A stretch of DNA of 64,000 nt from an uncultured Gammaproteobacteria bacterium (GCA_964648865.1 CAZYLV010000001.1:18476-82475), one strand, 5' to 3'; numbered from the stretch's first letter, positions 44,501 to 64,000 are shown. Notes: a model not told the origin generated them from the sequence alone. Made by a program: numbers and translations.

Positions 44501-44561
44501 AGCGCTTGTCAGCTGCGCGAATCGCGCCTATAGTATAGAGGAAGATTGACTCCCGCAACCT

Positions 44562-46009: not shown

Positions 46010-48532
46010 ATGGATCCCGAACTGCTCGAAAAATTCACCTCGCACCTCAAGAGCGTCCTGGTGCGCGCCTATAACCTGGCGCATGAGCTCGGCGTGCCGA
46101 CCATCGGGGTCGAGCACCTGCTGTGGTCGTTGGTCACCGAGCGCGGCTCCATCGGCGCGGAGATCCTCACCAAGGCCAAGCTCGCGCCGGACGCGCTGCG
46201 CGAGCGCATCGCCGCCAAGGCCCTGGAGGGCACCGCCAAGAGTGACGCCCCGCTGCCGCCGCAGCTCGGCGAGGAGACCAAGCGGGCCATCGAGAAGGCC
46301 GTGCACGCCGCCAACCAGCACGAGCACAAGTACGTCGGCACCGAGCACCTGCTCTCCGGGATGCTGGCCGCCGATGACGGTACGCTCGCGGAGCTGCTGC
46401 GCGCCCAACAGGTGGACCCCGCCGGCATCAAGGAGCAGCTCGCCACGGTGCTCAAGTCGACGTCCAAATTCCCGGACATCGCCGAGGGCCTGCCGGTCGA
46501 GGACCGTCCGCGCGCGCCGGAGGTGCCGAGGCCCGAGCAGCAGGGCAAGAAGAAACAGGCCGGCAAGACCCCGGCGCTCGACTATTTCACCGTGGACCTC
46601 ACCGGTGCCGAAGCCCAGAAGCGCATCGACCCGGTCGTCGGCCGGGAACGCGAGATCGAACGCGTCATCGAGATCCTCAGCCGCCGCACAAAGAACAATC
46701 CCCTGCTCCTCGGCGAACCGGGCGTCGGCAAGACGGCCATCGTCGAAGGGCTGGCGCGACGCATCGTGGCCGGCGAGGTGCCGGACGCGCTGCGACGCAA
46801 GCGCATCCTCTCCTTGGACCTGGCGCTCGTCGTGGCCGGCACCATGTACCGCGGCGAGTTCGAAGGCCGCCTCAAGCAGATCATCGACGAGGTCAAGGCG
46901 CACCCGGAGGTCATCCTCTTCCTGGACGAGGCCCACACCATCTCCGGCGCCGGATCGGCCTCCGGCTCGCTCGACGCCGCCAACATCCTCAAGCCGGCGT
47001 TGGCGCGCGGCGAGATCCGCTGCATCGGCGCCACGACCTTCGACGAGTACAAGAAGCACATCGAGTCCGACAGCGCGCTCGACCGGCGCTTCCAGAGCCT
47101 CGAGGTGCGCGAACCCTCGGCGGCCGAGACGCGCGAGATCCTCGCGGGGGTCAAGACGCATTACGAGAAGTACCACAACGTGCGTATCCAGGACGCGGCC
47201 TGTGCCGAGGCGGTGTCGCTCGCCGAGCGCTACCTCTCGGAGCGCCGCTTCCCCGACAAGGCCCTCGACCTCATCGACGAGGCCGCGGCCGGCGTCAAGG
47301 TGCGCGCCGGCGGCGAGCCGCACGCCCAGGAAAGCCGCACGCTCGAGGCGGCCATCGACCAGGCCAGCCGCCGCAAGCAGGATGCCGTCTCCGGCGAACG
47401 CTACGTCGAAGCCTTGGAATGGAAGGAGCGCGAGAACCGGCTGCGCGCCAAGCTCAGCGAGCTGCTGGAGCGCGTCGGACGCAAGGGCCGCGAGCCCGTC
47501 GGCGCGGTAGGCCGCGCCGACGTCGCCGCCGTGGTGGCGCGCATGACCGGTGTCCCGGTCGAAGAGCTCACCCAGTCGGACGCCGAACGGCTGCTGACGC
47601 TCGAGGACGACCTCCGTCGCCACGTCGTCGGGCAGGACCACGTGCTCGGCGGGTTGGCCGATGCCGTGCGGCGCGCCCGCGCCGGCCTCGCCTCGCCCGA
47701 CCGCCCGTCGGCCTCGTTGCTCTTCATGGGCCCCTCGGGCGTCGGCAAGACCGAACTCGCCAAGGCCCTGGCAACGACCGTCTTCCACGACCCCAAGGCC
47801 CTCATCCGCATCGACATGTCCGAGTTCGGCGAGGCCTTCACCGTCTCCAAACTGCTCGGCTCCCCGGCAGGCTACGTCGGTTACCGCGACGCCAACAAGC
47901 TGACCGACGCCGTGCGCCGCCGCCCGTACAGCGTGGTGCTGTTCGACGAGTTGGAGAAGGCGCACCCGGACGTGCTCAACCTGCTGCTGCAGATCCTCGA
48001 CGAGGGGCAGGTCACCGACGCCGCCGGCCGCACCGTCTCCTTCCGCCAGACGATCGTCGTCATGACCTCGAACGTCGGGCTGGAGCGCTACCTGCGCGGA
48101 CCCTTCGGCTTCACCGACGCCGGCACGCGCGCGGACCTCGACGAACAGGACCTGCGCCGCGAGGCGCTGGCCCACTTCCGGCCGGAGCTCGTCAACCGCA
48201 TCGACCGCGTCTTCGTCTTCCGTCCGCTCACCGCCGAGCATCTCGAGGCCGTCGTCGCCAAGGAGATCCGCGGCCTGGCCGTCCGGCTCGAGGAGCGGCG
48301 CGTGGCGCTCCATGCCAGCCCGGCCGCGGTGCGTCGCCTGGCCGAAATGGCCGACCAACCCGAGAAAGGCGCCCGTGCCGTGCGCGCGCTGGTGCAGGAG
48401 CACGTCGAAGGTCCGGCCGCGCGCATGCTGCTCGCAGCCGGGGACAAGCGTATCCGCAACCTGATGCTCGAGAAGAAGGGTGACGCGCTCACGCTGGTCA
48501 CCCGGACGGCCCGCCGCACCAAGGCGGCCTGA
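46010..48532 (+). CDS. clpC: ATP-dependent Clp protease ATP-binding subunit (ClpC-type AAA+).
   Basis: Two AAA+ modules (GEPGVGKTAIVEGLA, GPSGVGKTELAKALA) and an N-terminal Clp_N repeat. Confidence 0.85.
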   Translation: MDPELLEKFTSHLKSVLVRAYNLAHELGVPTIGVEHLLWSLVTERGSIGAEILTKAKLAPDALRERIAAKALEGTAKSDAPLPPQLGEETKRAIEKAVHAANQHEHKYVGTEHLLSGMLAADDGTLAELLRAQQVDPAGIKEQLATVLKSTSKFPDIAEGLPVEDRPRAPEVPRPEQQGKKKQAGKTPALDYFTVDLTGAEAQKRIDPVVGREREIERVIEILSRRTKNNPLLLGEPGVGKTAIVEGLARRIVAGEVPDALRRKRILSLDLALVVAGTMYRGEFEGRLKQIIDEVKAHPEVILFLDEAHTISGAGSASGSLDAANILKPALARGEIRCIGATTFDEYKKHIESDSALDRRFQSLEVREPSAAETREILAGVKTHYEKYHNVRIQDAACAEAVSLAERYLSERRFPDKALDLIDEAAAGVKVRAGGEPHAQESRTLEAAIDQASRRKQDAVSGERYVEALEWKERENRLRAKLSELLERVGRKGREPVGAVGRADVAAVVARMTGVPVEELTQSDAERLLTLEDDLRRHVVGQDHVLGGLADAVRRARAGLASPDRPSASLLFMGPSGVGKTELAKALATTVFHDPKALIRIDMSEFGEAFTVSKLLGSPAGYVGYRDANKLTDAVRRRPYSVVLFDELEKAHPDVLNLLLQILDEGQVTDAAGRTVSFRQTIVVMTSNVGLERYLRGPFGFTDAGTRADLDEQDLRREALAHFRPELVNRIDRVFVFRPLTAEHLEAVVAKEIRGLAVRLEERRVALHASPAAVRRLAEMADQPEKGARAVRALVQEHVEGPAARMLLAAGDKRIRNLMLEKKGDALTLVTRTARRTKAA

Positions 48533-48537
48533 CGCCT

Positions 48538-49338
48538 ATGGCGGAGGAACTCACCATCGACGGTCCCGGCGCCGAATTCGCGGCGGCCGCGGACCTCACC
48601 CGCGCGCGCCTGCAGGCGCAACGCGCGCAACCTTCCCCGCCCCCGGCGGCGCTGCTCGAGGCTGCTGCGGCGGATGAAGAGGAGCAGCTCCTGGCCGAGG
48701 AAGAAGCCGAGCAGGACGCCCGCCGGCTGCTCGCGCGCTCCCGCCGCGCTGCCGGCGCGCGCGGCGGTGCCGACGAGGGCGCGGCATCACTGGGCTCGGA
48801 GCTCACCAGCTACGCGGAGGAGCTCATCGAAGTCATCACCTTCTTCGTGCAGATCGAGACCATCATCGTGCCGTTCGCGCTCTTCTTCAAATGGTCGCTG
48901 CAGTTCTGGGGCGGGAACCTCGGCCTCATGCCCAGCCTGATCGGCCCGGCCGTGAAAGGGCTGGAAAAGGTCGCGGAAGCCGCATCGGCAGGCACCAAGA
49001 CCGCCGCCAAGGCGGGCTCCACGGGCGTGACGCAGGCCACCGGCCAGACCGCGAGCGCCTCCGGCGGAGGCGGCCTGCAGTCCGCCGCACAGCAGCTGGC
49101 AGGCGGAGGCGACGAGGGCGTCAAACCCATCTCCATCGGCCTCATCTTCCTGACCACGCTCATCTGGATCGCCCTTGGCGTCCTGATCGTCGCGAACTTC
49201 CTGGTGGTCGTCGCCGTGCCGCTTCTCCTGGCCGGCGGCGCGGCCGGCGTCTTCGTGGGCGTCTGCTCCGCGCTCGGCGACCTTTGCACAAACGAGACGT
49301 TCTCGAGCATCATAGAGTGGTTCTCGTCCATCTTCTAG
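48538..49338 (+). CDS. Hypothetical membrane protein with multiple TM helices and a Gly/Ala-rich loop.
   Basis: ORF starting 6 nt after the clpC stop. Confidence 0.5.
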   Translation: MAEELTIDGPGAEFAAAADLTRARLQAQRAQPSPPPAALLEAAAADEEEQLLAEEEAEQDARRLLARSRRAAGARGGADEGAASLGSELTSYAEELIEVITFFVQIETIIVPFALFFKWSLQFWGGNLGLMPSLIGPAVKGLEKVAEAASAGTKTAAKAGSTGVTQATGQTASASGGGGLQSAAQQLAGGGDEGVKPISIGLIFLTTLIWIALGVLIVANFLVVVAVPLLLAGGAAGVFVGVCSALGDLCTNETFSSIIEWFSSIF

Positions 49339-49343
49339 CGACT

Positions 49344-50558
49344 ATGCTCAGGAGGATCCTCGTCATCGCGGCGTTCGCGGCATTCACCCTCAGCATGGGG
49401 TTCGCCTTGTGGTGGTTCTTCTTCCGTCCGCCCACGGAACGGCTGCCGACGGTCGTCACCAACGCCAACGTCGCACCGCCGACGGGGCTCCCGGGCGCCG
49501 GCGTCGGACTCCCCGGCGCGGTCAACGCGCCGCCGGGCGGCGCGCCCCCTCCGGCTGCGCGCATCGCCAGCGGCGGGTTGACCCTGGCCGCGGCCGTCAC
49601 CCCCATCGCCGTCGACGCGGCGTCGCTCTCCCCCGACGGCGACGGGGTGCGGTTCTACGATCCGGACGAAGGCAAGTTCTACCGCGTCGATCCGGACACC
49701 GGGGAACGCACGGCGCTCTCGGACAAGCGCTTCCCCGACGTCGAGACCGTGGCCTGGGCGCCGACGGAAGACAAGGCGGTGCTGGAGTTCCCGGATGGCT
49801 CCAACGTGATGTTCGATTTCGGCTCGCAGCGCCAGGTGACGCTGCCCAAGCACTGGGAGGAGTTCCAGTTCTCCGCCGACTCGCGCAAGCTGGCGAGCAA
49901 ATCGCTCGGCATCGACCCGTCCAACCGTTGGCTGGTGGTCTCCAACGCCGACGGCTCGAGTGCCGTGCCCATCCAGGAGCTCGGCAACAACGAGGCCAAG
50001 GTCAACGTCAACATGTCCCCGACCGGACAGGTGGTGGCCTTCTCACGGACCGGCGAGGCGCAGGGCTTCGGCCGTCAGGAGATCCTGCTCATCGGCCAGA
50101 ACAAGGAGAACTTCAAGGGGCTCGTCGTCGAGGGGCTCAACTTCCAGGGCCAGTGGGCGCCGGACGGCAAGCGCCTGCTCTACAGCGCCGTCTCCCCGAC
50201 CGACGACTACCGCCCGATGCTCTGGGTCACCGATGCCTTCGGCCAGGACATCGGCAACAACCGCCGCAAGCTCAACCTCAACACCTGGGCGGACAAGTGC
50301 ACCTTCTCCGGCACGGCGACCCTCTTCTGCGCGGTGCCGCGCGAGCTGGAACGCGGCGTCGGCCTGGAACGGCGCATCGCCGACAACGTGCCGGACGACC
50401 TCTACAGCATCGACCTGGCCACCGGCGCGCGCCGGCTCGTCGCCCGTCCGGACTCGGACTCCACGATGACGCAGCTGATGGTCTCGCCGGACGGCCGCAC
50501 CCTGACCTTCGTCGAGCAGGGCTCGAACATCCTGCGGCAGATCCGTCTGGCGCCGTAG
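49344..50558 (+). CDS. Membrane-anchored TolB-like / PD40 beta-propeller protein.
   Basis: N-terminal TM helix and repeated beta-propeller-like segments (SPDG...). Confidence 0.5.
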   Translation: MLRRILVIAAFAAFTLSMGFALWWFFFRPPTERLPTVVTNANVAPPTGLPGAGVGLPGAVNAPPGGAPPPAARIASGGLTLAAAVTPIAVDAASLSPDGDGVRFYDPDEGKFYRVDPDTGERTALSDKRFPDVETVAWAPTEDKAVLEFPDGSNVMFDFGSQRQVTLPKHWEEFQFSADSRKLASKSLGIDPSNRWLVVSNADGSSAVPIQELGNNEAKVNVNMSPTGQVVAFSRTGEAQGFGRQEILLIGQNKENFKGLVVEGLNFQGQWAPDGKRLLYSAVSPTDDYRPMLWVTDAFGQDIGNNRRKLNLNTWADKCTFSGTATLFCAVPRELERGVGLERRIADNVPDDLYSIDLATGARRLVARPDSDSTMTQLMVSPDGRTLTFVEQGSNILRQIRLAP

Positions 50559-50559
50559 T

Positions 50560-51204
50560 ATGCCGCGACCGCCGCTCGTCGTGCTCTTCCTGTTCTCCCT
50601 CTCGGCGGTCCTGCTCGTGATTTTCGGCATGCTGGTCTTCCGGGACGACGGCCGGCAGCCGCCCGAGCCCGCTCCCCTGCCCGAGACCCGCAGCGCGCCC
50701 GAGGTGACGGTCGCGGACCCGGTGCGCGGCAACGCCGCGGCGGATGCGCCGACGATCGTCGTCTTCGGCGACTACCAATGCGAGTATTGCCGCCAGCTCG
50801 AGACGACGCTGGCCGAGATCGAGGTCGGACGTCCGGACGTGCGCATCGCCTGGAAGAACCTGCCGCTGCGTCTCGAGCATCCCCAGGCCCAATTGGCCGC
50901 GGAAGCGGCGCTCTGCGCCGGCCGCCAGGGGCGCCACTGGGAGATGCACGACCTGCTCATGGGCGTCGCCCTGCCGACGACGGCGGAGCTGGCCGTCCCC
51001 TTGGCCGAGGAGGTCGGCATCGACGCCGAAGCCTTCCGGACCTGTCTGGCGACCGGCGCCACACGGCCGCTCGTGGACCGGACCGTGGAGGAGGCGCTGG
51101 CGCTGGGCGTCGACGGCGTCCCCTACCTCTTCGTCGGCAGCCAGCGCTTCTCCGGATTCGTGGAACCCGCGGCGATCCTTGCGGCGCTCGAGGCGCAACG
51201 CTGA
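50560..51204 (+). CDS. dsbA: DsbA-family thiol:disulfide oxidoreductase.
   Basis: N-terminal TM helix and CEYC (CxxC) active site. Confidence 0.7.
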   Translation: MPRPPLVVLFLFSLSAVLLVIFGMLVFRDDGRQPPEPAPLPETRSAPEVTVADPVRGNAAADAPTIVVFGDYQCEYCRQLETTLAEIEVGRPDVRIAWKNLPLRLEHPQAQLAAEAALCAGRQGRHWEMHDLLMGVALPTTAELAVPLAEEVGIDAEAFRTCLATGATRPLVDRTVEEALALGVDGVPYLFVGSQRFSGFVEPAAILAALEAQR

Positions 51205-51226
51205 GCTGTGCTACAATAGGCCGCGT

Positions 51227-52681
51227 ATGCGGGCGCTCCGATTGTGCGCGGTCCCCGTGCTCGTCGGGGCGCTGTTGTCTCTGCTTGGCGTATCGTCCGC
51301 CGCGGCAGCGCCCGGCGCCATCGGACAGGAATGCCTCTCCGGAGACCGTTGCGATGCCGGACTCACGTGCGTGGACCTGGACGCAGGGGCCGCCGTCGCC
51401 AAGCGTTGCACCAGGACCTGCACGGACACCGGGATCGGTTCGCGCGACTGCCCGGAGCCGACCTCCTGCGTGGACGTCCCCGGTACCGGGCGCTACTGCG
51501 TGGACCTGACGGGCGCGACGTGGGAGGGGAGCTTCTTGACCGACACCGACTCCCCGGGAGGACCTCCCACGGAACCCGCATCCAACAGCAATGTCCCCTT
51601 CACGCCCGTGGCGCCGACGCTCGCGCTGCCCATCCCCACCTTCGGAGGTTTCTCCACCCTGCAGGTGCAGGACGTCGGCGGATCCCGGTTCATCGACATC
51701 CCCTTCGTCGCGGAGTACGTCGTCGCCCTCTACCGATACGCCATCGGGATCCTCGTCACCCTCGGCACCGTCATGGTCGTGGTGGCCGGATTCCAGTACC
51801 TCACGGCGCGCGGCAACGCGTCCGTCATCCAGGCGGCGCGCGGGCGGATCCTCAACGCGCTGATCGGCATCGGCATCGCGCTCGGGAGCTACCTCATCCT
51901 CGCCGCCATCAACCCGGAGCTGGTCAACTTCCGCAACATCCGGGTGAACCTCATCCAGACGGTGGACGTCGAGAGCGTGCTGCGGACGACGAGCGAAGCC
52001 ACCGGTTCCGACAGCCCGACGAATCCCGAATGCGATCCGTCCTCCGGCGGCTACGCGCCCGGCGCGAGCGGATCGTCGGCGGGCGGCGGCAGCTGCCCGG
52101 TCTCGCTCGAGGCCCCGTTCGTCGACGGCGGCGGGCGACGTCCGGAGCGTACCGAGGAATTCTTCCGCGAGTACGGCAGCGCCTCGGTCTCCGGCGGCAC
52201 CCCCCGCGAGCGGGTCATCCGCGCCGCACAGGCGGCGGCCTCCTGCGAACTGGTCATGGGCTCCTGCGGCAACACGGTGGAATCGATCTACGAACTGGCG
52301 GGCGTCCGGCTGCGTACGACGCATGAGATCGGCTCCGAGAACGTCCGCTACCTCCTCAGCATCAACACCTGCGAACGGGGCGACCGCACATGCAAGCAGG
52401 CGGCGCGCTGCTCGGCGTACGACCGTTTCGAAGGGGACATCGACGGATGGCCGGATGCCTGGGCGCGCGAACTGCAGCCCGGGGATGCCTTCTGGATCTA
52501 CAACGCGAACGCGGCACCGGCCGGCCAACACGCCGCCGTCTTCATGGGTTGGGCGGGCGGCGGCCGCGCCAATGTCGTGCAAGGCGGCAACAGCGGTGAG
52601 ACCTGGCGCGTCCGCGGCGGGACCATCTGCATCACGAGCGCCTGCGGCGGCGTGCTCACGAGGACACAGCGGCCGGAGTGA
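51227..52681 (+). CDS. Secreted cysteine-rich protein with an embedded VirB2/TrbC pilin-like two-TM module.
   Basis: Signal peptide, Cys-rich domain, module YVVALYRYAIGILVT...ARGNASVIQAAR...LILAAINPELVNFRNIR, then a second Cys-containing domain. TGtGCTACAAT extended -10. Confidence 0.6.
   Translation: MRALRLCAVPVLVGALLSLLGVSSAAAAPGAIGQECLSGDRCDAGLTCVDLDAGAAVAKRCTRTCTDTGIGSRDCPEPTSCVDVPGTGRYCVDLTGATWEGSFLTDTDSPGGPPTEPASNSNVPFTPVAPTLALPIPTFGGFSTLQVQDVGGSRFIDIPFVAEYVVALYRYAIGILVTLGTVMVVVAGFQYLTARGNASVIQAARGRILNALIGIGIALGSYLILAAINPELVNFRNIRVNLIQTVDVESVLRTTSEATGSDSPTNPECDPSSGGYAPGASGSSAGGGSCPVSLEAPFVDGGGRRPERTEEFFREYGSASVSGGTPRERVIRAAQAAASCELVMGSCGNTVESIYELAGVRLRTTHEIGSENVRYLLSINTCERGDRTCKQAARCSAYDRFEGDIDGWPDAWARELQPGDAFWIYNANAAPAGQHAAVFMGWAGGGRANVVQGGNSGETWRVRGGTICITSACGGVLTRTQRPE
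51594..51975 (+). repeat. Duplicated pilin-like module, copy 1 (about 75% nt identity to 53414-53792).
   Basis: Seen directly. Confidence 0.6.
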
Positions 52682-52726
52682 CGGCGGGCCCGCGGCGGTC
52701 CGCTTTTTTGGTACAATCGTGGGGAT

Positions 52727-54511
52727 ATGACCCGGATGCATCGAGCGCTTACGGTCGCCGCCCTCGCCTGCCTGCTCCTGCCTCCATCTCCGGTCGCCGC
52801 GGAGGGGCGGCGCATCGCCTGCTTGGGCGATTCCATCACCAACCAGTACGGACCGGTCTTCGAGACCGCCGACGGCGAACGGTGCACGGTCGTGGCGCGT
52901 GACGGCGCCTCCACGGGCGCCATCCTTGACCTGTTCCGCGAACGGGTGCTCGGCGGCGGGTTCACCGACCTCATCGTCCGCGCGGGACGCAACGACATCT
53001 ACTCCGGCCGCGGAGTCGGCAACGCCAGGACGAACCTCGGCACGATCTACGAGGAGGCGCGGCGGGCGGGCATGCGCGTCGTCGCCGTGAGCATGCTTCC
53101 CCACAAGGGCTATGCCAGCTGGAACGATTCCGTCCAACGGCAGACGGACGAGCTGAACGCGTGGCTCGCATCGGCCCCGGTGGACCGGTTCGTGGACGCG
53201 GACGCGCACCTGGCCGCATCGGACGATCCGGACCGCCTGAACCTCGCCTACGACCGCGGCGACCACCTGCACCTCTCCAACGACGGGAAATGCGCCTTGG
53301 CGAGCTTCATCGCCGAGCGCGCCTTCGGGGGCTCCGGCGGCTGCTCGCCGAGCGGCCGGAGCTCCCCCGCCAGCACCGGCGACGGAGGCGTCTCCCTCGA
53401 GGAGACCGACACGCCCTTCGAGCAGATCGTGCCGACGCTCCAGCTGCCCATCCCGACCTTCCCGGGCTTCTCCGACATCCAGGTGCTCCAGGACGGCGAG
53501 AACCGCAGCATCGACATCCCTTTCCTGGCCGAGTACGTCGTCGCCCTGTACCGCTACGCCATCGGCATCATGGTGACGATCGCCATGGTCATGGTCGTGG
53601 TGGGCGGCTTCCAGTGGACGACGGCGCGCGGCAACGCCTCCGCCATCCAAGAGGCCAGGGACCGCATCACCAACGCCGTCATGGGCATCGTGCTGGCGCT
53701 CGGCAGCTACGCCATCCTGGCCGCCATCAACCCCGAGCTCGTCAATTTCCGCAACATCCGCATCGACCTCATCCGGCGGCGCGAGGTCATCTACCGGGAG
53801 AACGGCGGCATCGAGGAGGGTTGCCGCGGCGGCAGCTGCGGGACCCGGCGGCCGATCGCCAATACGGACTTCGACGAGCTCTTCCAGCGCTACGCCGGCT
53901 GCGCCGGGGTGGACTGGCGCATGCTCAAGGCCGTGTCCTACATCGAATCCGGACTGAACCCGGAAATCGTCAACCGCTACGGCTTCGTGGGCCTTTTCCA
54001 GATCGCGCCGCGCTTCTGCCACCTCTCGCGCCAGACCTGCACGGAAGAGGCGCTGCTCGACCCGGAGATCAACACCTACGTCGCCGCCACCCAGCACCTG
54101 CGCAACGGCGCGCGTATCGTCCGCGACACCTGCCCGAGCATCACGGACGCCCACACCTTCGCCACCCTCATGTACTACGCGCACAACAGCGGCGCCGGGG
54201 CGCTGCGCGCGGTGCTCAACCCGCGGCCGAGCCGCTACCTGCCTGAGGGTGGCGCCGGCTGCACCAACGACCTGGAGGTGCTGACCCGGACCGCCGCGAC
54301 CTTCCAGCGCAATTTCCGCCCCGACATCCCCAACGCCGAGGGCCGCATGACGACCGCCCGCCGGGTCGGCGACCGGGCGCGCGAGCTCGGCGTCACGGAT
54401 CCGCTCGCCGACGGCTCCTGCCCGTCCGAGCCCGCCCCCGGCAGCCGGTCGTCCTCGAGTGACGCTCCGGAACCCGGCGTCGGCGGCGGTCCAGGCACCT
54501 CCGAACTCTGA
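52727..54511 (+). CDS. Secreted multidomain protein: SGNH/GDSL hydrolase, VirB2/TrbC pilin-like two-TM module, SLT lytic transglycosylase.
   Basis: GDSITNQ (SGNH block I), the conserved module, and SLT motifs (YIESGLNP, GLFQI). TGgTACAAT extended -10. Confidence 0.65.
   Translation: MTRMHRALTVAALACLLLPPSPVAAEGRRIACLGDSITNQYGPVFETADGERCTVVARDGASTGAILDLFRERVLGGGFTDLIVRAGRNDIYSGRGVGNARTNLGTIYEEARRAGMRVVAVSMLPHKGYASWNDSVQRQTDELNAWLASAPVDRFVDADAHLAASDDPDRLNLAYDRGDHLHLSNDGKCALASFIAERAFGGSGGCSPSGRSSPASTGDGGVSLEETDTPFEQIVPTLQLPIPTFPGFSDIQVLQDGENRSIDIPFLAEYVVALYRYAIGIMVTIAMVMVVVGGFQWTTARGNASAIQEARDRITNAVMGIVLALGSYAILAAINPELVNFRNIRIDLIRRREVIYRENGGIEEGCRGGSCGTRRPIANTDFDELFQRYAGCAGVDWRMLKAVSYIESGLNPEIVNRYGFVGLFQIAPRFCHLSRQTCTEEALLDPEINTYVAATQHLRNGARIVRDTCPSITDAHTFATLMYYAHNSGAGALRAVLNPRPSRYLPEGGAGCTNDLEVLTRTAATFQRNFRPDIPNAEGRMTTARRVGDRARELGVTDPLADGSCPSEPAPGSRSSSSDAPEPGVGGGPGTSEL
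53414..53792 (+). repeat. Duplicated pilin-like module, copy 2.
   Basis: Seen directly. Confidence 0.6.
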
Positions 54512-54550
54512 CGCCTTGCGCCGCCGCTGTAGGGCTGCTGAAATGGCAGC

Positions 54551-55879
54551 ATGCCCAAAAGCGCTCCCCTCTTCCGCTGCGGCAACTGTGATGCCCAGTT
54601 CCCCAAATGGAGCGGGCGTTGTTTCGGCTGCGGCCGCTGGGGGACGGTCGAGGAGAGCGCGCCGGCCCCGCCTGAGGCCGCCGGCCGACCGACCGCCGCG
54701 GCGGCGAAGAGCCTGCCCGCCGCACAGGTCGCCGGCCGCGCCCCGGAGCGCGTGCCCACCGGCAGCGCGGAGCTCGATCGGGTGCTCGGCGGGGGGCTCG
54801 TGCCCGGCTCGCTCGTGCTCGTCGCCGGGGAGCCCGGGGTCGGCAAGTCCACGCTGCTGCTCTCGCTCGCCGAGCGCCTCGGCCGACCCGTGCTCTACGT
54901 CTGCGGCGAGGAATCGCCGGAGCAGATCGCCCTGCGCATGCGGCGCATGGGCTGTGCGGGCGAGCGGCTCTCCTTCCTCACCGAGACCGACGCCGCCGTC
55001 GTCGCCGCGACGGCCCGCGCAGAACGCCCGGCGCTCGTCATCGTCGACTCCGTGCAGACCCTGCGCGCCGCGGAGGGCGGCGGCGAGCCCGGCGGCATCG
55101 GGGAGCTGCGCGCCGCCATCGCCCGGCTCGCCGAGGTCGCCAAGAAGGACGGCATCACGACGCTGCTCATCGGGCAGGTCACCAAGGACGGGAGCGTGGC
55201 CGGCCCCAAGACGCTCGAACATCTCGTCGACGTGGTGCTGACCGTGGAGGGCGACGGCGTGCGCCCGCTGCGCATGATGCGGGCGGCAAAGAACCGCTTC
55301 GGCTCGAACCGCGAGGTGGGGCTCTTCGAGATGGCCGACCGCGGACTCGTCGACGCCGCGGACGTCCACGCCGCCGCCCTCGACGCCCGCGCCGCGCCCG
55401 TGCCCGGGACGGCCATGGCCGTGGTCCGTGAAGGCAACCGCACCTTGCTCCTCGAGGTGCAGGCGCTGACCAACAAGACGGCCTTCGGCTATCCGGTGCG
55501 TCGCGCCTCCGGCTTCGACACCAACCGGCTGAACGTGCTGCTCGCGGTGCTCGAGCGCCGCGGCGGACTGTCGCTCGCGCAGCACGACGTCTACGTCAAC
55601 GTCGCCGGCGGACTGAGCCTCGAGGAGCCGGCGGCCGACCTGCCGGTGGCCATGGCCATCGCCTCCTCCGCCCTCGGCACGGCCTTGCCTGCGCGCACCG
55701 GGCTCTACGGCGAGATCGGCTTGACCGGGGAGATCCGGGCGGCCCCGGACGCCAAGGAGCGCGCCGCCGACGCCGCACGCCTGGGGCTCACGGAGACCCT
55801 CGGCCCTGCGACCCTCGGCGACGTCCGCGCCGCCATCGCCTGGCTCAAAAAGAAAAACGCGCCGCAGGGCGGCGCATGA
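54551..55879 (+). CDS. radA: DNA repair protein RadA/Sms.
   Basis: Zinc finger CGNC...CFGC and Walker A GEPGVGKSTLLL. Confidence 0.9.
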   Translation: MPKSAPLFRCGNCDAQFPKWSGRCFGCGRWGTVEESAPAPPEAAGRPTAAAAKSLPAAQVAGRAPERVPTGSAELDRVLGGGLVPGSLVLVAGEPGVGKSTLLLSLAERLGRPVLYVCGEESPEQIALRMRRMGCAGERLSFLTETDAAVVAATARAERPALVIVDSVQTLRAAEGGGEPGGIGELRAAIARLAEVAKKDGITTLLIGQVTKDGSVAGPKTLEHLVDVVLTVEGDGVRPLRMMRAAKNRFGSNREVGLFEMADRGLVDAADVHAAALDARAAPVPGTAMAVVREGNRTLLLEVQALTNKTAFGYPVRRASGFDTNRLNVLLAVLERRGGLSLAQHDVYVNVAGGLSLEEPAADLPVAMAIASSALGTALPARTGLYGEIGLTGEIRAAPDAKERAADAARLGLTETLGPATLGDVRAAIAWLKKKNAPQGGA

Positions 55880-56430: not shown

Positions 56431-58518
56431 TCACTCGGGGTGCACGACGTCCTCGAAGCGGGCCAGCCGTCCGCGGAGGGCCGGATGCGCGTCCAGCGAG
56501 GCGTCGATGTCGAGCAGCTCCCGGCAGCTCTCCTGGAGCGCGGCGATCCGCCGGGCGTCGAGCAGCGCCGGCGACCAGACCCCCTGCATGCCGGATTGCG
56601 CCGTCCCCCAGAGCTCGCCGGGGCCGCGCAACGCCAGATCCGTCTCGGCCAGGGCGAAACCGTCGGACGAATCCACGAGGGCCTGCAGGCGGGCCGCTGC
56701 GGCAGGCGTCTCGTTGTCCGTGAGCAACAGGCAGGTCCCCGGCGCGCTGCCGCGGCCGACCCGCCCACGCAGCTGATGGAGCTGGGCCAACCCGAAGCGG
56801 TCGGCCGAACGCACCACGATGAGCGCGGCCCGCGGCAGGTCGATGCCTACCTCGATGACCGTCGTGGCCACGAGCACGTCCCCCTCCCCCGCCGCCATGG
56901 CCCGCATGACGGTGCGCTTCTCGACGCTCTTCATCTTGCCGTGCAGCAGCAGGACGCGCGCCTCGGGCAAGGCCCCGACAAGCCGCCGGTGCTCGTCGAT
57001 CGCGGCCTCGGCGGCGGCGTCGGCGCGCCCGGCGATGGACGGGCAGACCACGAAGGCCTGGTGCCCCTGCGCGACGCAGGCGGCGAGCGCCGCGTCCGCG
57101 GCCGCGGTCTCGCCCAGGAGCAGCCGCGTGGCCACCGGCCCGCGCCCGGCCGGACGGGCCGCAAGCACCGAGACGTCCAGGTCGCCAAACAGCGAGAGGG
57201 TCAGGGTGCGCGGGATGGGCGTGGCGGTGAGCGAGAGCAGGTGCGGCAACGCCCCGTCGGCCCGCTTCTTGCGGAGCGCCTGCCGCTGACGGACGCCGAA
57301 GCGATGCTGCTCGTCGACCACGGCCAGGCGCAGGTCGGCGAAGGCCACGTCGCCCTCGATGAGCGCATGCGTGCCGACGACGAGCGATGCCGTGCCGGAT
57401 CGCACCGCGTCGCGGACCGCCTCCTGCCGCACGCGCGCCGAACCCGGCAGCGGCAGATCCTCGCCGCGGCGCATCAGGCGCTGGGAGCCGGCGGCGAGCA
57501 GGGCGAGGACGACGTCCGTACCCGCGAACATCGAGGCCAAGGTGCGCAGGTGCTGCTCGGCCAGGACCTCGGTGGGCACGAGCACCGCAGCCTGGGCCCC
57601 GGCCGCAGCCACGGCCCGCGCCGCGATGGCCGCGACGGCCGTCTTGCCGGAACCGACGTCGCCGTTCACCAGCCGGTTCATGGGCCGCGGCCTGCCGAGG
57701 TCCTGGATGGCCTCCCAAGCGGCGCGGCGCTGCCCGTCGGTCAACGGGAACGGCAGGCCGGCCACGAAGGCCTTGATGTCCGCCTCCGGGAACGGGACCG
57801 GCGGGGCGCTCGCCGAGGTGAGGTCGCGCCGGGCGCGCTCCGAGACGAGCACGCGCAGGAACATGTCCTCCACGGCGAAGCGCTCCAGCGCGGCGTCGAG
57901 CGTCCGCTGGTCCGACGGGAAGTGGACGGCCCGGGTCGCCGAGGCGATGTCCGGCAGGGAGAAGCGGCTCCGCACGGCGTCGGGCAGCCACTCCGTGAGC
58001 GCGGCGGCCGCGGGCAGCGCAGCCTTGGCGGCCAGGCGCAGATGCTTGACGGAGAGCGTCCCGGCGGTCGGATACACGGGGACGATGCGGCCGGTGTGCG
58101 TCTGCTCGGCGCGGACAGCCTCGATGGTCGGCGAGAGGAACTGCAGCCCGTAGGCGGTGCGGCGCGCCTTCCCGGCAAGGAAGACGTCGCTGCCCGGCTT
58201 GTGGGTCTTCACCAAAAAATGCTGACCGAACCACAGGACCTTGGCCTTGCCGCTCCCGTCGGCGACGACGGCCTCGGTCATCAACCGGCGCGGCCCGCCG
58301 AAGCTGCGGCGGTTGCGGATCTGTTCGAGCCGGACACGGACGGTGGCTTCCTCGCCCGGGACGACGGCGGACAGCGGCAGCGTCCGCGAGTAATCCTCGT
58401 ACCGGAACGGGTGGTGAGCCAGCACGTCGGCGAGCGTGACGAGACCCAGGCGCTCCAGGGACCTGGCATGGCGGCGCAGCAGCGGCATCGCGGAAAGGAG
58501 GGGGGTCTCAAGCGGCAT
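56431..58518 (-). CDS. recG: ATP-dependent DNA helicase RecG.
   Basis: Helicase motifs GDVGSGKT and DEQHRFG, wedge domain. 695 aa. The track ORF extends spuriously over the tRNA genes. Confidence 0.9.
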   Translation of the reverse strand: MPLETPLLSAMPLLRRHARSLERLGLVTLADVLAHHPFRYEDYSRTLPLSAVVPGEEATVRVRLEQIRNRRSFGGPRRLMTEAVVADGSGKAKVLWFGQHFLVKTHKPGSDVFLAGKARRTAYGLQFLSPTIEAVRAEQTHTGRIVPVYPTAGTLSVKHLRLAAKAALPAAAALTEWLPDAVRSRFSLPDIASATRAVHFPSDQRTLDAALERFAVEDMFLRVLVSERARRDLTSASAPPVPFPEADIKAFVAGLPFPLTDGQRRAAWEAIQDLGRPRPMNRLVNGDVGSGKTAVAAIAARAVAAAGAQAAVLVPTEVLAEQHLRTLASMFAGTDVVLALLAAGSQRLMRRGEDLPLPGSARVRQEAVRDAVRSGTASLVVGTHALIEGDVAFADLRLAVVDEQHRFGVRQRQALRKKRADGALPHLLSLTATPIPRTLTLSLFGDLDVSVLAARPAGRGPVATRLLLGETAAADAALAACVAQGHQAFVVCPSIAGRADAAAEAAIDEHRRLVGALPEARVLLLHGKMKSVEKRTVMRAMAAGEGDVLVATTVIEVGIDLPRAALIVVRSADRFGLAQLHQLRGRVGRGSAPGTCLLLTDNETPAAAARLQALVDSSDGFALAETDLALRGPGELWGTAQSGMQGVWSPALLDARRIAALQESCRELLDIDASLDAHPALRGRLARFEDVVHPE

Positions 58519-58596: not shown

Positions 58597-59568
58597 ATGA
58601 GAATCTGCACCCTGTTCCTGCTGGCGTCGGCGCTCATGCCGACGCAGGCCGTCGCCCAGGAGTCCGTGCTCGTCATGGACATCGCCGTGGACGACACCCA
58701 GTTCCAGGCCGCCGGCGAGCTGGTCACAGACCAGCTGCGTGAGGGCATCGCCGCGGTGCGGGGCTGGGATCTCAGCCCGACGCGGACGACGCTCGACGCC
58801 GAGCGACGGAGGCACGGCTGCCGTGACGGGTTCACGGACCACGACTGCCTCGCCGCCATCGCGGCGGACGCAGGCGTCGGCCACCTCGTCTTCGGACGGC
58901 TGCGCGCCCGTGTGGGCAGCCCCGGCGAGTTCACGATCGAGCTGCAGCACTACGAGGTGGCAGCCGGCCGCTTCGTCGGCAGCACCTTCCGGTCGCTGCG
59001 CGTCGAGGGGATCGACACGGCGGACGCCGAGCTCCTGGCCCGCATCCAGACCATCCTCGGCGAGGACGACCTGCGGATCATGCCGCGCGCGCCGGTCTCG
59101 ACCGCGTCGACGCGACCCCGTCCGACCGGCCCGCCGAACCGCGACCTGACGGTCGGCTTCGGCATCGCGTCGCTCGCGGTCGGCGCGCTCTTCCTCGGAG
59201 GGGCGACCGTCTCCTGGGTGGCGATGGCCGACCTCGGACGCGACAGCGACTTCCAGGCCTATCGCCAGCGCGTACCCATGGGCAGCGCCACGGACGTCTG
59301 CGCCGAGGCCCGTGCCGACCGCGGCTGGGAGCGCGGGCAGGTGTCCGCGGACGTGGCTGCCGCCCAGACGGCCCGGGTGCGCACCATCTGCTCGGACGCC
59401 GCTTCGCTGGAGGTCTGGGAGTGGGTCCTGCCGCTCGCGTCGGCCGCCTTCGTGGGACTCGGCATCGGCCTCCTGCTGTTCGACCCGGGTCCGGGCGAAC
59501 CCCAGGTCACGGTGACCCCCCGCGTCGGCCTCAGCCACGCCGGACTCTCGATCAGCGTCGCGTTCTAG
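58597..59568 (+). CDS. Hypothetical secreted protein with a C-terminal TM anchor.
   Basis: Signal peptide MRICTLFLLASALMPTQAVAQE and AGGAGGAGG SD. Confidence 0.55.
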   Translation: MRICTLFLLASALMPTQAVAQESVLVMDIAVDDTQFQAAGELVTDQLREGIAAVRGWDLSPTRTTLDAERRRHGCRDGFTDHDCLAAIAADAGVGHLVFGRLRARVGSPGEFTIELQHYEVAAGRFVGSTFRSLRVEGIDTADAELLARIQTILGEDDLRIMPRAPVSTASTRPRPTGPPNRDLTVGFGIASLAVGALFLGGATVSWVAMADLGRDSDFQAYRQRVPMGSATDVCAEARADRGWERGQVSADVAAAQTARVRTICSDAASLEVWEWVLPLASAAFVGLGIGLLLFDPGPGEPQVTVTPRVGLSHAGLSISVAF

Positions 59569-59761: not shown

Positions 59762-59771
59762 GAAGGTTCGC

Positions 59772-59861: not shown

Positions 59862-59882
59862 ACGTGGTACACTACCCCTCGT

Positions 59883-60466: not shown

Positions 60467-60467
60467 A

Positions 60468-60511: not shown

Positions 60512-61186
60512 TCAGTCGGCGGCGAATGTCCAGGCGGCGATCCGCGTCGCGCCACCCTGCCGCAGGGCGGCGGCAGCGGCCGTGAGCGTCGCCCCCGTGG
60601 TCACGACGTCGTCGACGAGGAGATACGCCGCGCCGGGATCGACGGCGCCGCGCACGGCGAAGGCGCCGTCGACGTTCTTGGCGCGCGCCGCGCGGTCGAG
60701 GGCCGTCTGGGTCACGGTCCGCCGGACCCGGACGAGCGGCTGCGTCACCGCCCCCAGGCCACGGCCGGCGAGCGACCCCGCCAGCGTCGCCGCCTGGTTG
60801 GCGCCGCGCCGACGCAGGCGGGCGGCATGCATGGGCACCGGGACGATGGTCCAGCGCGTCGGCCTGAGCGCGCCGAGGCCCGACCAGCGCCCCAGGGCCT
60901 CGTCCGCGAGCGCGGCGGCCTCCGGACGCCGCTCGTACTTGAGGGCATGCACGACCATGCGCACCGCGGCGTCCTGGAAACGCGTCACGCTCCAGACCGC
61001 GAGCGCGTCGAGCCGCCGCGCCTCCGGCACGAGCGGGATGGCGCGCCAGCAGTCCGGGCAGGCGACGGCGCCTTCCCGTCCGCATCCTCCGCAGAAATCA
61101 GGAAAGAGCGCGTCGAGCACGCCCTTCCGGAACCGAGCGAGGGCGGCCGTCACTGGGCCGACCAGGTCGCGGAGTCCACCAGCCAT
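60512..61186 (-). CDS. comF: ComF family phosphoribosyltransferase.
   Basis: Zinc finger CGGCG...CPDC and PRTase motif LLVDDVVTTGATL. Confidence 0.75.
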   Translation of the reverse strand: MAGGLRDLVGPVTAALARFRKGVLDALFPDFCGGCGREGAVACPDCWRAIPLVPEARRLDALAVWSVTRFQDAAVRMVVHALKYERRPEAAALADEALGRWSGLGALRPTRWTIVPVPMHAARLRRRGANQAATLAGSLAGRGLGAVTQPLVRVRRTVTQTALDRAARAKNVDGAFAVRGAVDPGAAYLLVDDVVTTGATLTAAAAALRQGGATRIAAWTFAAD

Positions 61187-61776
61187 AGGTCGCCGCTGCG
61201 GCGGAATGCCAGGGTCAGCGTGCGGTAGTCGACGGTCGGCTGGTCGTCGCCGGATTGGGTCGAGCGCTGCGCGGCGACCGTGACCGTGGCGCGGCCGCCG
61301 GTCGCGTCGAGGGATGCGAGCGTCGTGGAGACGGCGCGCGTGGTCACGCCCACGTACCCGTCCCCGCCGCCCCCGGCCGAGCGGGCCTGGGCGATGGTTC
61401 GCTCCGTTGCCTCGCGCATCGACGCCGTCATGAGCGGATAGAGGTCGACGAGGTTCTGGAAGTCGGCCTGGTTGGAGTAGGTGCCGAACCGCTCTGCGAA
61501 CTGCCCGGCCGAGGAGACGAGCCGCTGCTCGAGGATCTCCTGATCCGAGGCGCGGGTGAACGTCTCGGCGGGTGCGGCGGGCGCGGACGCCGTCGGGACG
61601 TTGGCGTTGACCTGCGGCAAGCCTCCGGCCGGAGCGAGCGACGCCGTCGGCGTCGGCGCTTCGGCGGCGGGCTCCTCGGGCGCCGGCGCCGGACGCAGCA
61701 GGACGGCGGCCACGGCCGCCACCACGGTGACGAACACGACGACCCCGGCAACGATCAAGAGCATCCGCCGGCTCAT
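61150..61776 (-). CDS. Hypothetical membrane-anchored protein, a possible VirB8-like component.
   Basis: N-terminal TM helix and Pro/Ala linker. ATGA overlap with the upstream VirB4 gene. Confidence 0.45.
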   Translation of the reverse strand: MSRRMLLIVAGVVVFVTVVAAVAAVLLRPAPAPEEPAAEAPTPTASLAPAGGLPQVNANVPTASAPAAPAETFTRASDQEILEQRLVSSAGQFAERFGTYSNQADFQNLVDLYPLMTASMREATERTIAQARSAGGGGDGYVGVTTRAVSTTLASLDATGGRATVTVAAQRSTQSGDDQPTVDYRTLTLAFRRSGDLWLVDSATWSAQ

Positions 61777-63671
61777 ACGCCGCCCTCCTGTTCGGCGAGC
61801 TGCTGCTGGAACTCCTTCTTGGCCTGCTCGATCTCAAGCAGCTGGCGCGGATCGGTGGTGATGACCTGGTCCTCGGCGTACGAGGCGACGATCTTGATGG
61901 CGGCGTGCTTCTGGCCGGCGAAGAAGATGCCCTCGCCCACCCCGCTCTCGAGCAGCAGGTACTTCTCCCCCTGCGTGAGCAGGAAGGTCTTGGTGACCAG
62001 CTCGATGGAGGCCGGCGACTGCTTGAGCAGCAGCTGGATGGAGGAGTTGGTGACGATGGCCTGCCCGTAGGGCGAGGTCAGGAAGTCGTTGACGTCCTGG
62101 GTGATGGTGGTCACCCCGAGGTAGTACTTGCGGCAGCGTTTGACGAGCGCGAAGACGAACTTGGCCGAATCCTCCTGCTGCATCAGCCACCAGGCCTCGT
62201 CGATCACGAGGATGCGCCGCTTGCGCTCCGAGCGCACCACGTTCCAGATGTAGTTGACGATGCTGTAGATGGCCAGCGGCCGCAGCTCGTCTTCCAGGTC
62301 GCGCACCGAGAAGATGACCAGCGTGTTGCGGATGTCGACCGTGGTCGGCGAGTTGAAGAGCCCGGCGAAGGTGCCCTCGGTGTACTTCTTGAGCCGTTCC
62401 ACCAGGTCGCCGGATCCCTCCATGCCTTGGAGGACCTCCTGGAAGTCCTGGAAGATCGGCGGCTCGACGCGCGCCAGGTCGACGCCGGGGACGATGTCCT
62501 TCTTGGCGTAGGTCTCGAGCAGCGCCCGGTCGATGATGGAGTCCTCGGCGGTCGTCAGCTTGCCGCCGAGCATCAATCGGACGAGACCCTTCAACGTGAT
62601 GACGGCGCTGCGGATGATGTCCTCCACGGAATACTGCTCCCCCACCGGCCGGGGCAGCTCGAAGGGGTTGATCTTGGAATCCGAGGCCAGCGAGATGTTG
62701 ATGTACGTGCCGCCGACGGCGTCCGAGAGATGCTTGTATTCCATCTCCGGGTCGATGATCAGCACCTCGGAGCCGAGCATCAGCGACCGCAGCACCTCGA
62801 GCTTGACGGCATACGATTTTCCGGCGCCGGAGGTCGCGAACACGACCATGTTGGCGTTCTGGAGGGAAAAACGGTCGAACAGGATGAGCGAGTTGTTGTG
62901 GCGGTTGATGCCGTAGAGGATGCCGTTGTCCGACGTCAGGTCCGCCGAGGTGAACGGGAAGCTCGAGGCGATCGGCGAGCTGTTCATGTTGAAGGTCACC
63001 TGCAGCTCGTCGTTGCCGAGCGGCAGCGTGGAGTTGAAGCCCTGCTCGGCCTGGTAGAAGACGCGCTTGGAGTAGATGAGCTTGGCGCCGAAGACGTTCT
63101 CGATGTCGAGCGAGAACTTGTCCAGCTCCTCCTTGCTCTTGCCGTAGATCGTGATGTACAGCGCGAACTGGAAGAAGTGCTCGACGCCCTGCGTAAGGTC
63201 GTCGCGGAGCTTCTCGATGTCCCGCAGCGCCGTCTCCCGGAGCGGATCGCGCGGCGCGCCCTTCTCGGCATCGGAGAGGATCTGCGCCTCGAGGGTGCCG
63301 ACCTTGTTCTTGAGCTGCTTGAGGATGACGTGCGCCTTGACGGGGTAGAAGAACATCCCCACGTCGAGCATCTGGTTGATGTTGAGGATGGGCGTGAACC
63401 ACCCCACGCCCACGTAGCGCGGATAGGTGACCACGAAGACGGTCCGCACGTAGAGGTCACCGAGCAGCACGAAGGACGGCTCGACCTTCATGGCCGCGGG
63501 GGCGATGAGGTCGCGGATGGAGACGGTGCCTTTCCGGTAGACACGCTCCTCCTCGAGCGCCTCCTTCTCCACGGCGACCTTCTTTGCGGCTTCCGTGTCC
63601 GTCACCAAGGTCCCGCCCACCTCGACGGGGGCCCGCTTGCCGCGCAGCGCTTTGAACGGGTTGATGGCCAT
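61773..63671 (-). CDS. VirB4/PrgJ-type conjugation/T4SS ATPase.
   Basis: Walker A FATSGAGKSY and Walker B VIDEAWWLM. Confidence 0.8.
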   Translation of the reverse strand: MAINPFKALRGKRAPVEVGGTLVTDTEAAKKVAVEKEALEEERVYRKGTVSIRDLIAPAAMKVEPSFVLLGDLYVRTVFVVTYPRYVGVGWFTPILNINQMLDVGMFFYPVKAHVILKQLKNKVGTLEAQILSDAEKGAPRDPLRETALRDIEKLRDDLTQGVEHFFQFALYITIYGKSKEELDKFSLDIENVFGAKLIYSKRVFYQAEQGFNSTLPLGNDELQVTFNMNSSPIASSFPFTSADLTSDNGILYGINRHNNSLILFDRFSLQNANMVVFATSGAGKSYAVKLEVLRSLMLGSEVLIIDPEMEYKHLSDAVGGTYINISLASDSKINPFELPRPVGEQYSVEDIIRSAVITLKGLVRLMLGGKLTTAEDSIIDRALLETYAKKDIVPGVDLARVEPPIFQDFQEVLQGMEGSGDLVERLKKYTEGTFAGLFNSPTTVDIRNTLVIFSVRDLEDELRPLAIYSIVNYIWNVVRSERKRRILVIDEAWWLMQQEDSAKFVFALVKRCRKYYLGVTTITQDVNDFLTSPYGQAIVTNSSIQLLLKQSPASIELVTKTFLLTQGEKYLLLESGVGEGIFFAGQKHAAIKIVASYAEDQVITTDPRQLLEIEQAKKEFQQQLAEQEGGV

Positions 63672-63674
63672 AGC

Positions 63675-63989
63675 TCAGGCTTCCTCCACGCGGAGCTTGC
63701 CGACGTCGGTGAGCTTCTCGGCGTCGGAGACGATGGGGTTATAGGCGTTGTAGTAGAGCTCGATGAGCGACTGCGTGTCGAGCATCACCGCGCTCACCCC
63801 CATCGAGCCGAGGTTCGCGGCCACCGTATCGACACGCAGCAGCAGGTCCTTCCGTCGTTCCTGGAAGCGCGCCTCCTGGAGCCGGATGGTCAAGGCCGGC
63901 GTGATGGCCTCCTGCATGCGCTGGAAGAACCCCTTGCGCTTGTTGGTGAACGGGTCGAACGGGACGACCACGTAGAAGCGCTTGCTCAT
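63675..63989 (-). CDS. Hypothetical small protein upstream of the VirB4 gene.
   Basis: ORF with an ATG at 63989, 1 nt from the VirB4 start. Confidence 0.4.
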   Translation of the reverse strand: MSKRFYVVVPFDPFTNKRKGFFQRMQEAITPALTIRLQEARFQERRKDLLLRVDTVAANLGSMGVSAVMLDTQSLIELYYNAYNPIVSDAEKLTDVGKLRVEEA

Positions 63990-64000
63990 GATCTGCCCGA

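Follow-up and report, generated by a model that had tools for sequence, protein, structure and literature searches.

A co-oriented envelope gene cluster

The window considered here is a stretch of 64,000 nucleotides (GCA_964648865.1, CAZYLV010000001.1:18476-82475), whose own positions serve as coordinates throughout, and its region 48538-54511 (+ strand) holds a cluster of five genes, the last two of which encode large secreted proteins, hereafter A and B, that share an internal pilin-like module combined, in B, with two cell wall enzyme domains. A first-pass annotation made from the sequence alone had placed these genes in a co-oriented run after clpC, and the open reading frames (ORFs) lie exactly there, separated by intergenic gaps of 1-45 bp and directly 3' of a gene translated as an 840-aa ClpC-like AAA+ chaperone (46010..48532, +). 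The latter is a conserved upstream neighbour, in the same synteny in the related loci L001 and L003, and its L001 orthologue carries the Pfam domains Clp_N, AAA, AAA_2 and ClpB_D2-small. Start sites of the window genes were refined after ORF calling and reading frames were checked by the G+C content of third codon positions (GC3), which is consistent with the frames called for the cluster.

The first gene (48538..49338, +) encodes a membrane protein of 266 aa, as judged by hydropathy; its N-terminus is acidic and rich in Ala, and residues 96-118 and 194-247 are hydrophobic. It has no Pfam or NCBIfam match, and L001 and L004, both close relatives, are the only loci with a homologue. It is followed by a transmembrane (TM)-anchored beta-propeller of 404 aa (49344..50558, +), with an N-terminal TM helix and PD40 repeats scoring 28.5 bits (cutoff 20.9). 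The earlier description of this protein as TolB-like holds as far as the repeats are concerned, but not for TolB itself, the TIGR02800 equivalog model reaching 26.7 bits against a cutoff of 343. The third gene (50560..51204, +) encodes, as had been proposed, a TM-anchored DsbA-type thiol:disulfide oxidoreductase of 214 aa, with a PF01323 score of 67.8 bits (cutoff 25.6) and a CEYC active-site motif.

Protein A (484 aa; 51227..52681, +) consists of a signal peptide, a Cys-rich N-terminal domain, the pilin-like module and a C-terminal domain of no assigned family, while protein B (594 aa; 52727..54511, +) consists of a signal peptide, an SGNH esterase domain, a linker, the module, a second linker and an SLT lytic transglycosylase domain. 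Each begins with a signal-peptide-like segment, and cysteines number 18 in A, which bears out the cysteine richness noted at first pass, and 13 in B. The G+C content of the window is 69%, as against 64-67% in L001, L004 and L006 and 35-50% in the other Patescibacteria loci compared; the window represents a high-GC lineage among mostly low-GC relatives. The source is read as a Patescibacterium (CPR) of high G+C content, with A and B as two paralogues of its envelope.

The shared pilin-like module

Residues 121-248 of A and 227-354 of B align without gaps over 128 aa at 69% identity (blastp, E 7e-54), whereas no alignment is obtained between the two proteins outside this segment; given this identity and the lack of any other aligning part, the similarity of the module lies far beyond chance. 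In its extended form, the module covers residues 117-249 of A (51575..51973, +) and 221-356 of B (53387..53794, +), that is about 22-27% of each protein, and it is internal in both, as first described. The predicted layout of a hydrophobic helix, a short basic loop and a second hydrophobic helix was also recovered: hydrophobic segments occupy residues 165-194 and 207-233 of A and 270-299 and 314-339 of B, and both copies show the loop motif TARGNAS.IQ.AR as well as the ending AINPELVNFRNIR.

AlphaFold2 (AF2) models agree with this layout. In B, beta strands forming a hairpin (253-264) precede two helices (265-299 and 304-334) and a final strand (344-348); in A, whose model was built from only 4 sequences and has a mean predicted local distance difference test score (pLDDT) of 38.8, the helices at 162-193 and 198-233 are the only confident part (pLDDT 75-82). 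The modelled module fold opens with a beta-hairpin and closes with a beta-strand; between these stand two helices, roughly 35 and 31 residues long, connected by a loop of 4 residues. Two long hydrophobic helices with a short loop, as in VirB2-like pilins, are seen in A and B by both AF2 and hydropathy; in contrast with a small stand-alone precursor whose hairpin directly follows the signal peptide, the modules of A and B have folded domains on either side. The module flanks are nearly invariant, with PFxPxxPxLxxPIPG upstream and INPxLV downstream.

The family assignment points to PF18895 (T4SS_pilin, where T4SS stands for type IV secretion system), whose curated gathering cutoff is 26.6 bits. 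Full-length B matches this model at E 1.1e-4 (22.6 bits), full-length A at E 5e-3 (17.3 bits) and the B module alone at E 1.5e-5 (25.4 bits), all of them marginally short of that cutoff; each of the 15 module homologues reaches E<0.01 (best E 2.3e-10), and a precomputed PF18895 match exists for P0002, an orthologue with 87% identity. Membership of the PF18895 family is well supported by these profile matches. By contrast, PF04956 (TrbC/VirB2) gave no match to A or B at E<=1 and matched one of the 15 homologues (E 0.004), and an hhalign comparison with 8 genuine VirB2/TrbC proteins from plasmids, although in register, was weak (P 0.002, probability 13%). The claim of a pilin-type module has thus been upheld for the Pfam family and left weak for a direct VirB2/TrbC relationship, the deeper link to classical VirB2 resting mainly on Pfam naming and on relatives such as P0070. 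The family is conserved and the SGNH and SLT motifs of B are intact (see below), and the module is, by its pattern of conservation, best described as a conserved domain and not as the generic TM hairpin that had been named as the alternative. No additional pilin-like gene was detected when a broad hidden Markov model of the module was run over every ORF of at least 45 aa from the window, L001 and L004.

At the level of the two segments 51575-51973 and 53387-53794, the modules of A and B are 68% identical, while each is 55-61% identical to its L001 orthologue. This greater within-genome similarity is weaker or mixed in L001, L003 and L004 and is not uniform across genomes; it may be read as a modest hint at co-evolution between modules, or between module and machine. 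Recent gene conversion between A and B was judged unlikely, the modules having already diverged by about 31% at the protein level.

Enzyme and flanking domains

The combination of SGNH and SLT domains proposed for B was corroborated. Residues 32-187 (52820..53287, +) pass the Pfam cutoff for GDSL_2 (SGNH, PF13472), with blocks I (GDS), III (GRND) and V (DHLH) all present and an SGNH fold, and residues 385-495 (53879..54211, +) pass the cutoff for SLT (PF01464), with the lysozyme-like fold of a family-1 lytic transglycosylase (pLDDT ~90 in the AF2 model). The SLT motifs, namely E407-S408 with the catalytic Glu, GLFQ at 422-425 and HNSG at 486-489, are invariant among 11 homologues. Fold matches of B include the lytic transglycosylases Slt, MltE and MltC, together with the peptidoglycan O-acetyl enzymes PatB, OatA and Ape1, and the SGNH domain aligns with the C-terminal SGNH domain of another family member, P0008 (E 6e-14). 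From its catalytic motifs, B is annotated as carrying an SGNH esterase and an SLT lytic transglycosylase, both intact.

The C-terminal 235 residues of A contain an invariant GSC...GxH motif, that is a Cys/His pair, which hints at a thiol hydrolase, with which it is compatible and which it does not prove. This domain had no match in Pfam (searched with six homologues) or in the PDB, where the profile search returned noise, and a homologue search with the C-domain alone as query came back empty. A relationship to Peptidase_C39_2 or papain-like enzymes was considered and set aside, hhalign against the C39_2 domains of relatives giving a probability of 0.2%.

A large family of fused modules in Patescibacteria

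A profile built from 13 module rows was searched against 1.84 billion cluster representatives and retrieved 60,480 matches at E<=1e-3, 15,482 at E<=1e-10 and 534 at E<=1e-30. Most of the best 150 representatives are 280-890 aa long and hold the module at an internal position, joined to SLT, M15/VanY, M23 or C39-like domains. Among the best 142 new representatives, 126 have a single module (median length 458 aa); at least 100 aa follow the module on the C-terminal side in 121 of these 126, 69 also have at least 60 aa ahead of it, and the two flanks contain a median of 6 and 9 cysteines. A Pfam scan of 101 top relatives found PF18895 in 87 (E<1e-3) and PF04956 in four, above cutoff with a best E of 1.5e-13, P0070 passing both the TrbC model (51.2 bits) and PF18895; fused domains were Peptidase_C39_2 (9 proteins), SLT (8), Peptidase_M15 (7), VanY (4) and M23 (3). 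A stand-alone module protein is also known (P0079, 173 aa).

Close homologues are few, and matches in genome collections with a named source, where interpretable, are metagenome-assembled genomes of Patescibacteria: the closest is 'Patescibacteria group bacterium FW602_bin.41', others come from Magasanikii-, Falkow- and Moranii-bacteria, and a few records are labelled otherwise. The domain order around the module varies among relatives. In P0008 (L003 10001-11893) it is module-SLT-SGNH, compared with SGNH-module-SLT in B; the second module gene of L004 has no SLT domain and ends in an HxxxD...H motif (GHYDHIHVSVY) that resembles M15-type metallopeptidases; and P0017 joins a module like that of L004 B (87% identity) to an A-type C-domain. 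These permuted parts point to a cassette-like exchange of domains around a constant module.

The first-pass annotation had presented the fusion of a pilin-like hairpin with esterase and muramidase domains as unprecedented. No description of pilin-module/hydrolase fusions was found in the searchable literature, in which such proteins are counted as 'VirB2' by their PF18895 match without treatment of the extra domains; the fusion is nevertheless common in the phylum, the module being internal in what are, from their predicted architectures, hundreds of multi-domain proteins, and it is not unique to this genome. Taken by themselves, A and B of the window are ordinary members of a large, under-annotated family. 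What is new, as far as the literature could be searched, is the recognition that large wall-hydrolase or Cys-rich proteins are a common setting for the VirB2-like modules of Patescibacteria, and that a conserved PD40 partner accompanies them.

Some relatives carry modules in tandem, either 2-8 per polypeptide or 2-4 followed by SLT, spaced by a repeated PFQLEMPLG-like linker; examples are P0070 (820 aa), P0030 and P0126 (~550 aa), P0021, P0023 and P0041. Such proteins could be polytopic pseudo-oligomers or polyprotein precursors. A separate reading takes A and B themselves as pro-pilins, in which the conserved flanks would be processing sites and cleavage would free a mature pilin of about 100 aa together with soluble enzymes. 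Classical VirB2/TrbC propilins are processed at both ends, and both the near-invariant flanking motifs and the repeated linker motif of P0070, P0030 and P0021 would fit such a scheme; however, the cluster offered no peptidase candidate, and in the AF2 model of B the flanks are beta-strands packed on the hairpin, which look more like part of a fold than like cleavage sites. We regard this reading as very improbable.

Linkage to a type IV secretion locus

The VirB4 gene reported at first pass lies at 61773..63671 (-) and encodes a 632-aa T4SS ATPase of the CD1110 family, which passes the equivalog NF045971 (337.6 bits, cutoff 325) and scores 90 bits with Pfam P-loop_TraG. It is preceded by the 3' part of a TraC-like gene (PF26593, TrsD-type; 63675..64000, -) that runs to the end of the window, and Logan contigs of 2-4 kb with an identical VirB4 show the upstream TraC-like gene and then PrgI/VirB3. 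The A/B cluster is therefore encoded with VirB4 and other T4SS genes, virB4 lying 7.3 kb downstream of it. Between the two stand radA (442 aa; 54551..55879, +; identified from its translation and the Pfam annotation of orthologues), which is the conserved downstream neighbour of the cluster, recG (695 aa; 56431..58518, -; Pfam annotation of the L001 orthologue), tRNA genes, and a gene for a comF-like phosphoribosyltransferase protein (224 aa; 60512..61186, -), which is similar to a 223-aa protein of L001 and whose name is taken from the ABY1 locus description in PMC12102498. T4SS loci in the class ABY1 commonly include comF, recG and radA (PMC12102498), and chromosomal T4SSs related to MPF-FATA, with VirB2-like pilins, have been described in Patescibacteria (PMC10633639, PMC12102498, PMC12857230). 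As the genes between the cluster and virB4 reproduce the published ABY1 layout, the apparatus of the window is one that is already known, and its presentation as an undescribed surface apparatus has to be withdrawn.

Gene neighbourhoods were compared with those of related loci (L001, L003-L007 and L009-L014). The order clpC-membrane protein-PD40-DsbA-A-like-B-like-radA is repeated in L001 and in L003, the latter with 40% GC, and ORFs of L004 found by homology occupy matching positions; in L001, VirB4, TraC-like and PrgI genes follow about 6 kb beyond the cluster. A VirB4 gene occurs within 10 kb of a module gene in seven of 13 distinct loci (the window, L001, L004, L006, L009, L010 and L014), against about 2% that we estimate for a random gene in a genome of about 1 Mb, with the reservation that the loci are not all independent. 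The linkage is closest in L009, L010 and L014, where PrgI, TraC-like, VirB4 and a few further genes are followed co-directionally by 1-3 module genes (282-574 aa), so that module genes and VirB4 are co-operonic. The suggested connection of the cluster with a VirB4 system has in this way been substantiated.

Across diverse Patescibacteria, the PD40 propeller is a near-constant companion of module genes. A homologue adjoins module genes in 11 loci (L001, L003, L004, L006, L007 and L009-L014), for example at L009 14728-15888, L010 12314-13558, L011 10734-12017, L012 4639-5775, L013 9051-10175 and L014 10738-11901, and it lies inside the VirB4 operon in L009, L010 and L014; the TM-anchored PD40 propeller may be an unrecognised T4SS-associated component. 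DsbA homologues stand beside module genes in L001, L003, L004, L005, L006 and L010. Neither the propeller nor DsbA is mentioned in the T4SS survey PMC12102498.

Could A and B instead be housekeeping autolysins that remodel the wall of their own cell during growth, division or daughter separation, the module being a mere membrane anchor and the proximity of virB4 a by-product of a compact genome? The region is a core chromosomal one (gyrB, gatB, thrS, dnaE and pheT are all in the window), the cluster forms one apparent transcription unit with lemA, htpX, clpC and radA, the link to classical VirB2 is weak, and in L003, where about 10 kb of sequence was examined on each side of the cluster, there is no VirB4 within that distance. 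A plain anchor, however, would not be expected to be 69% identical between paralogues with unrelated flanks, nor to define a family whose clusters number more than 500 at E<=1e-30; each of the 15 homologues fits the T4SS_pilin model, module genes stand inside the VirB4 operon in three other lineages, and VirB4 is nearby in 7 of 13 loci, not all of them independent, against the ~2% estimate. We consider the autolysin explanation unlikely.

A proposed role at the secretion machine

The interpretation that we favour, with some reserve, is that A and B are wall hydrolases of the VirB1 type and that their VirB2-like hairpin tethers them to the T4SS. Following Sec export and cleavage of the signal peptide, the N-terminal domain would lie outside; helix 1 would then enter the membrane, the short loop would be cytoplasmic, and helix 2 would lead back, placing the C-terminal domain outside as well, as hydropathy and charge suggest. 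The domains of B exposed in this way would be the SGNH esterase and the family-1 lytic transglycosylase recognised by their folds and catalytic motifs. Lytic transglycosylases need a free C6-OH on N-acetylmuramic acid (MurNAc), and because of this dependency the removal of O-acetyl groups from MurNAc by the SGNH domain would enable cleavage of the glycan strand by the SLT domain, an order of action suggested by the known dependency between Ape and lytic transglycosylases. A would contribute its Cys-rich N-domain and a C-domain with the invariant Cys/His pair, the neighbouring DsbA would probably form the disulfides of both proteins (18 + 13 Cys), and the PD40 propeller is their conserved partner. 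A and B would open the peptidoglycan locally for the T4SS, the VirB1 role, with the module recognised by the machine as a pilin. Classical systems have adjacent virB1 and virB2 genes (the order virB1-virB2-virB3 was seen in 8 plasmid loci), while here both functions would reside in one polypeptide, and in this lineage the A/B cluster is separated from virB4 by about 7 kb, occupied by radA-recG-tRNAs-comF.

Several points weigh against this interpretation. To our knowledge, neither pilus formation nor T4SS binding has been demonstrated experimentally for a PF18895 protein. The module copies of the window, at 25.4, 22.6 and 17.3 bits, fall just below the PF18895 cutoff, the hhalign comparison with genuine VirB2/TrbC proteins is weak, and the module profile had no match among PDB sequences at E<=10. 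The substrate of the SGNH domain is not fixed by its fold, which could be that of an esterase or of an acetyltransferase, and the C-terminal domain of A matches no family. The cluster of L003 has no VirB4 within about 10 kb on either side, and the window cluster appears to be co-transcribed with the housekeeping genes lemA, htpX, clpC and radA.

A further possibility is that A and B are pilus-borne and directed at a host: VirB4 would extract them into a T4SS pilus or conduit as minor subunits, and their variable enzyme heads (SLT, M15, M23, C39-like, SGNH) would reach the wall of the host bacterium, in the manner of a polymorphic effector system whose trafficking module stays constant. Conjugative pilins expose their termini on the outer side, where fusions have been tolerated, and both termini of the hairpin are predicted to be outside in A and B. 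The variable, shuffled domains around a constant module, the arrays of module genes adjoining VirB4 (L009), and within-genome modules whose mutual similarity equals or exceeds that to their orthologues (68% versus 55-61%) are all in keeping with it, as is the requirement of pilin arrays for epibiotic growth in S. epibionticum (PMC10633639). Flanks of 200-350 aa on each side would nevertheless be hard to pack in a VirB2-type filament, except at low stoichiometry; there is no immunity-like gene in evidence, the cluster occupies a conserved core-genome position and not a variable island, and no pilus has yet been seen for any Patescibacterial T4SS (PMC12857230). On balance, this explanation seems to us quite unlikely.

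The reading as T4SS-tethered wall hydrolases can be widened into a doubtful but more general proposal, namely that the VirB2-like module of Patescibacteria might not be mainly a filament subunit but a portable adaptor, through which polymorphic, disulfide-rich extracellular domains (lytic transglycosylases, M15/M23/C39-like peptidases, SGNH esterases and many unknown domains) would be passed to the T4SS. In that case the 'pilin arrays', together with a dedicated PD40 partner, would consist of subunits tipped with enzymes or adhesins for breaching or gripping the host cell wall, and the tandem polyproteins with 4-8 modules would carry this principle further. In the single Patescibacterium examined genetically, epibiotic growth requires the T4SS, whose function has been called completely unknown (PMC11665869); pilin arrays are likewise essential in S. 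epibionticum (PMC10633639). If many 'VirB2-like pilins' are indeed large wall-degrading or Cys-rich surface proteins, these arrays need to be read again, and the enzyme heads, the PD40 propeller and DsbA become candidates for the opening of the wall, own or host, by ultra-small bacteria. In addition, the fusion of a VirB2-like with a VirB1-like part is evidence of the Rosetta-stone kind for joint action of pilin and wall hydrolase at the T4SS.

Other features of the window

The stretch 46010-55879 contains nine genes, all on the + strand. A sigma-70-like promoter match 5' of lemA (44506..44534, +; 10 of 12 consensus positions, a consensus match only) marks a possible start of a long co-oriented transcription unit. 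Between A and B, immediately behind the stop codon of A and 22 bp ahead of B, stands a terminator-like GC-rich hairpin with a T-run (TTTTTT; 52683..52704, +; pattern match only), which might terminate or attenuate transcription inside the cluster.

Directly downstream of virB4, and overlapping its stop codon, a gene at 61150..61776 (-) encodes a protein of 208 aa whose single TM helix is N-terminal. The protein is conserved after virB4 in L001, L006 and L010; only a weak C-terminal match to the Rv0361 family was obtained, and it is a candidate VirB8-like component. Genes for two tRNA-Ser (GCT, TGA) and one tRNA-Arg (GCG) lie between recG and comF (59668-59861 and 60391-60467, +). Among them, a conserved membrane protein of 201 aa without Pfam match was called at 59778-60383; the start of this ORF overlaps the second tRNA, so that its true start is probably further downstream. 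Four other well-supported ORFs, at 22230-24428, 27433-29313, 31244-32767 and 58597-59568 (732, 626, 507 and 323 aa), have no Pfam match at E<=1e-5; sizeable ORFs of this kind are typical of the poor annotation coverage of the phylum.

Comparison with known systems

Among the known systems closest to A and B are the VirB2-like pilins described in Patescibacteria (PMC10633639, PMC12102498), with which they share the PF18895 match, the phylum, a locus with VirB4, PrgI/VirB3 and TraC-like/TrsD genes, and the ABY1 layout; the occurrence of two paralogous copies side by side also recalls the published pilin 'arrays'. The published accounts treat such proteins as pilins; in A and B, by contrast, the module is internal, with enzyme and Cys-rich domains around it and additional conserved beta elements of its own.

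The pilins of the VirB2/TrbC/TraA type (PF04956; A. tumefaciens VirB2, RP4 TrbC) have a similar helix-loop-helix hairpin of similar length, with ends predicted outside and loop inside. Unlike the module of A and B, however, they are stand-alone precursors of about 100-120 aa, and the loop-proximal segment is 7 residues longer in the window proteins.

As for the enzyme part of B, its SGNH domain has close known counterparts in the SGNH-fold peptidoglycan O-acetyl esterases and transferases (Ape1, PatB and the C-domain of OatA), while the association of SLT or other wall-hydrolase domains with a T4SS is shared with VirB1-class hydrolases (A. tumefaciens VirB1 and the Gram-positive PrgK of pCF10, TraG of pIP501 and CD419/TrsG types). 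Known members of this class are soluble or anchored by a single N-terminal TM helix, and neither a VirB2-like hairpin nor an SGNH domain is known to us in any of them. Those of Gram-positive bacteria are, like B, multi-domain and membrane-anchored (PMC12102498). In MPF-T loci, virB1 and virB2 are adjacent genes, whereas the anchor of the window proteins is itself pilin-like and would in effect fuse the VirB2 and VirB1 functions.

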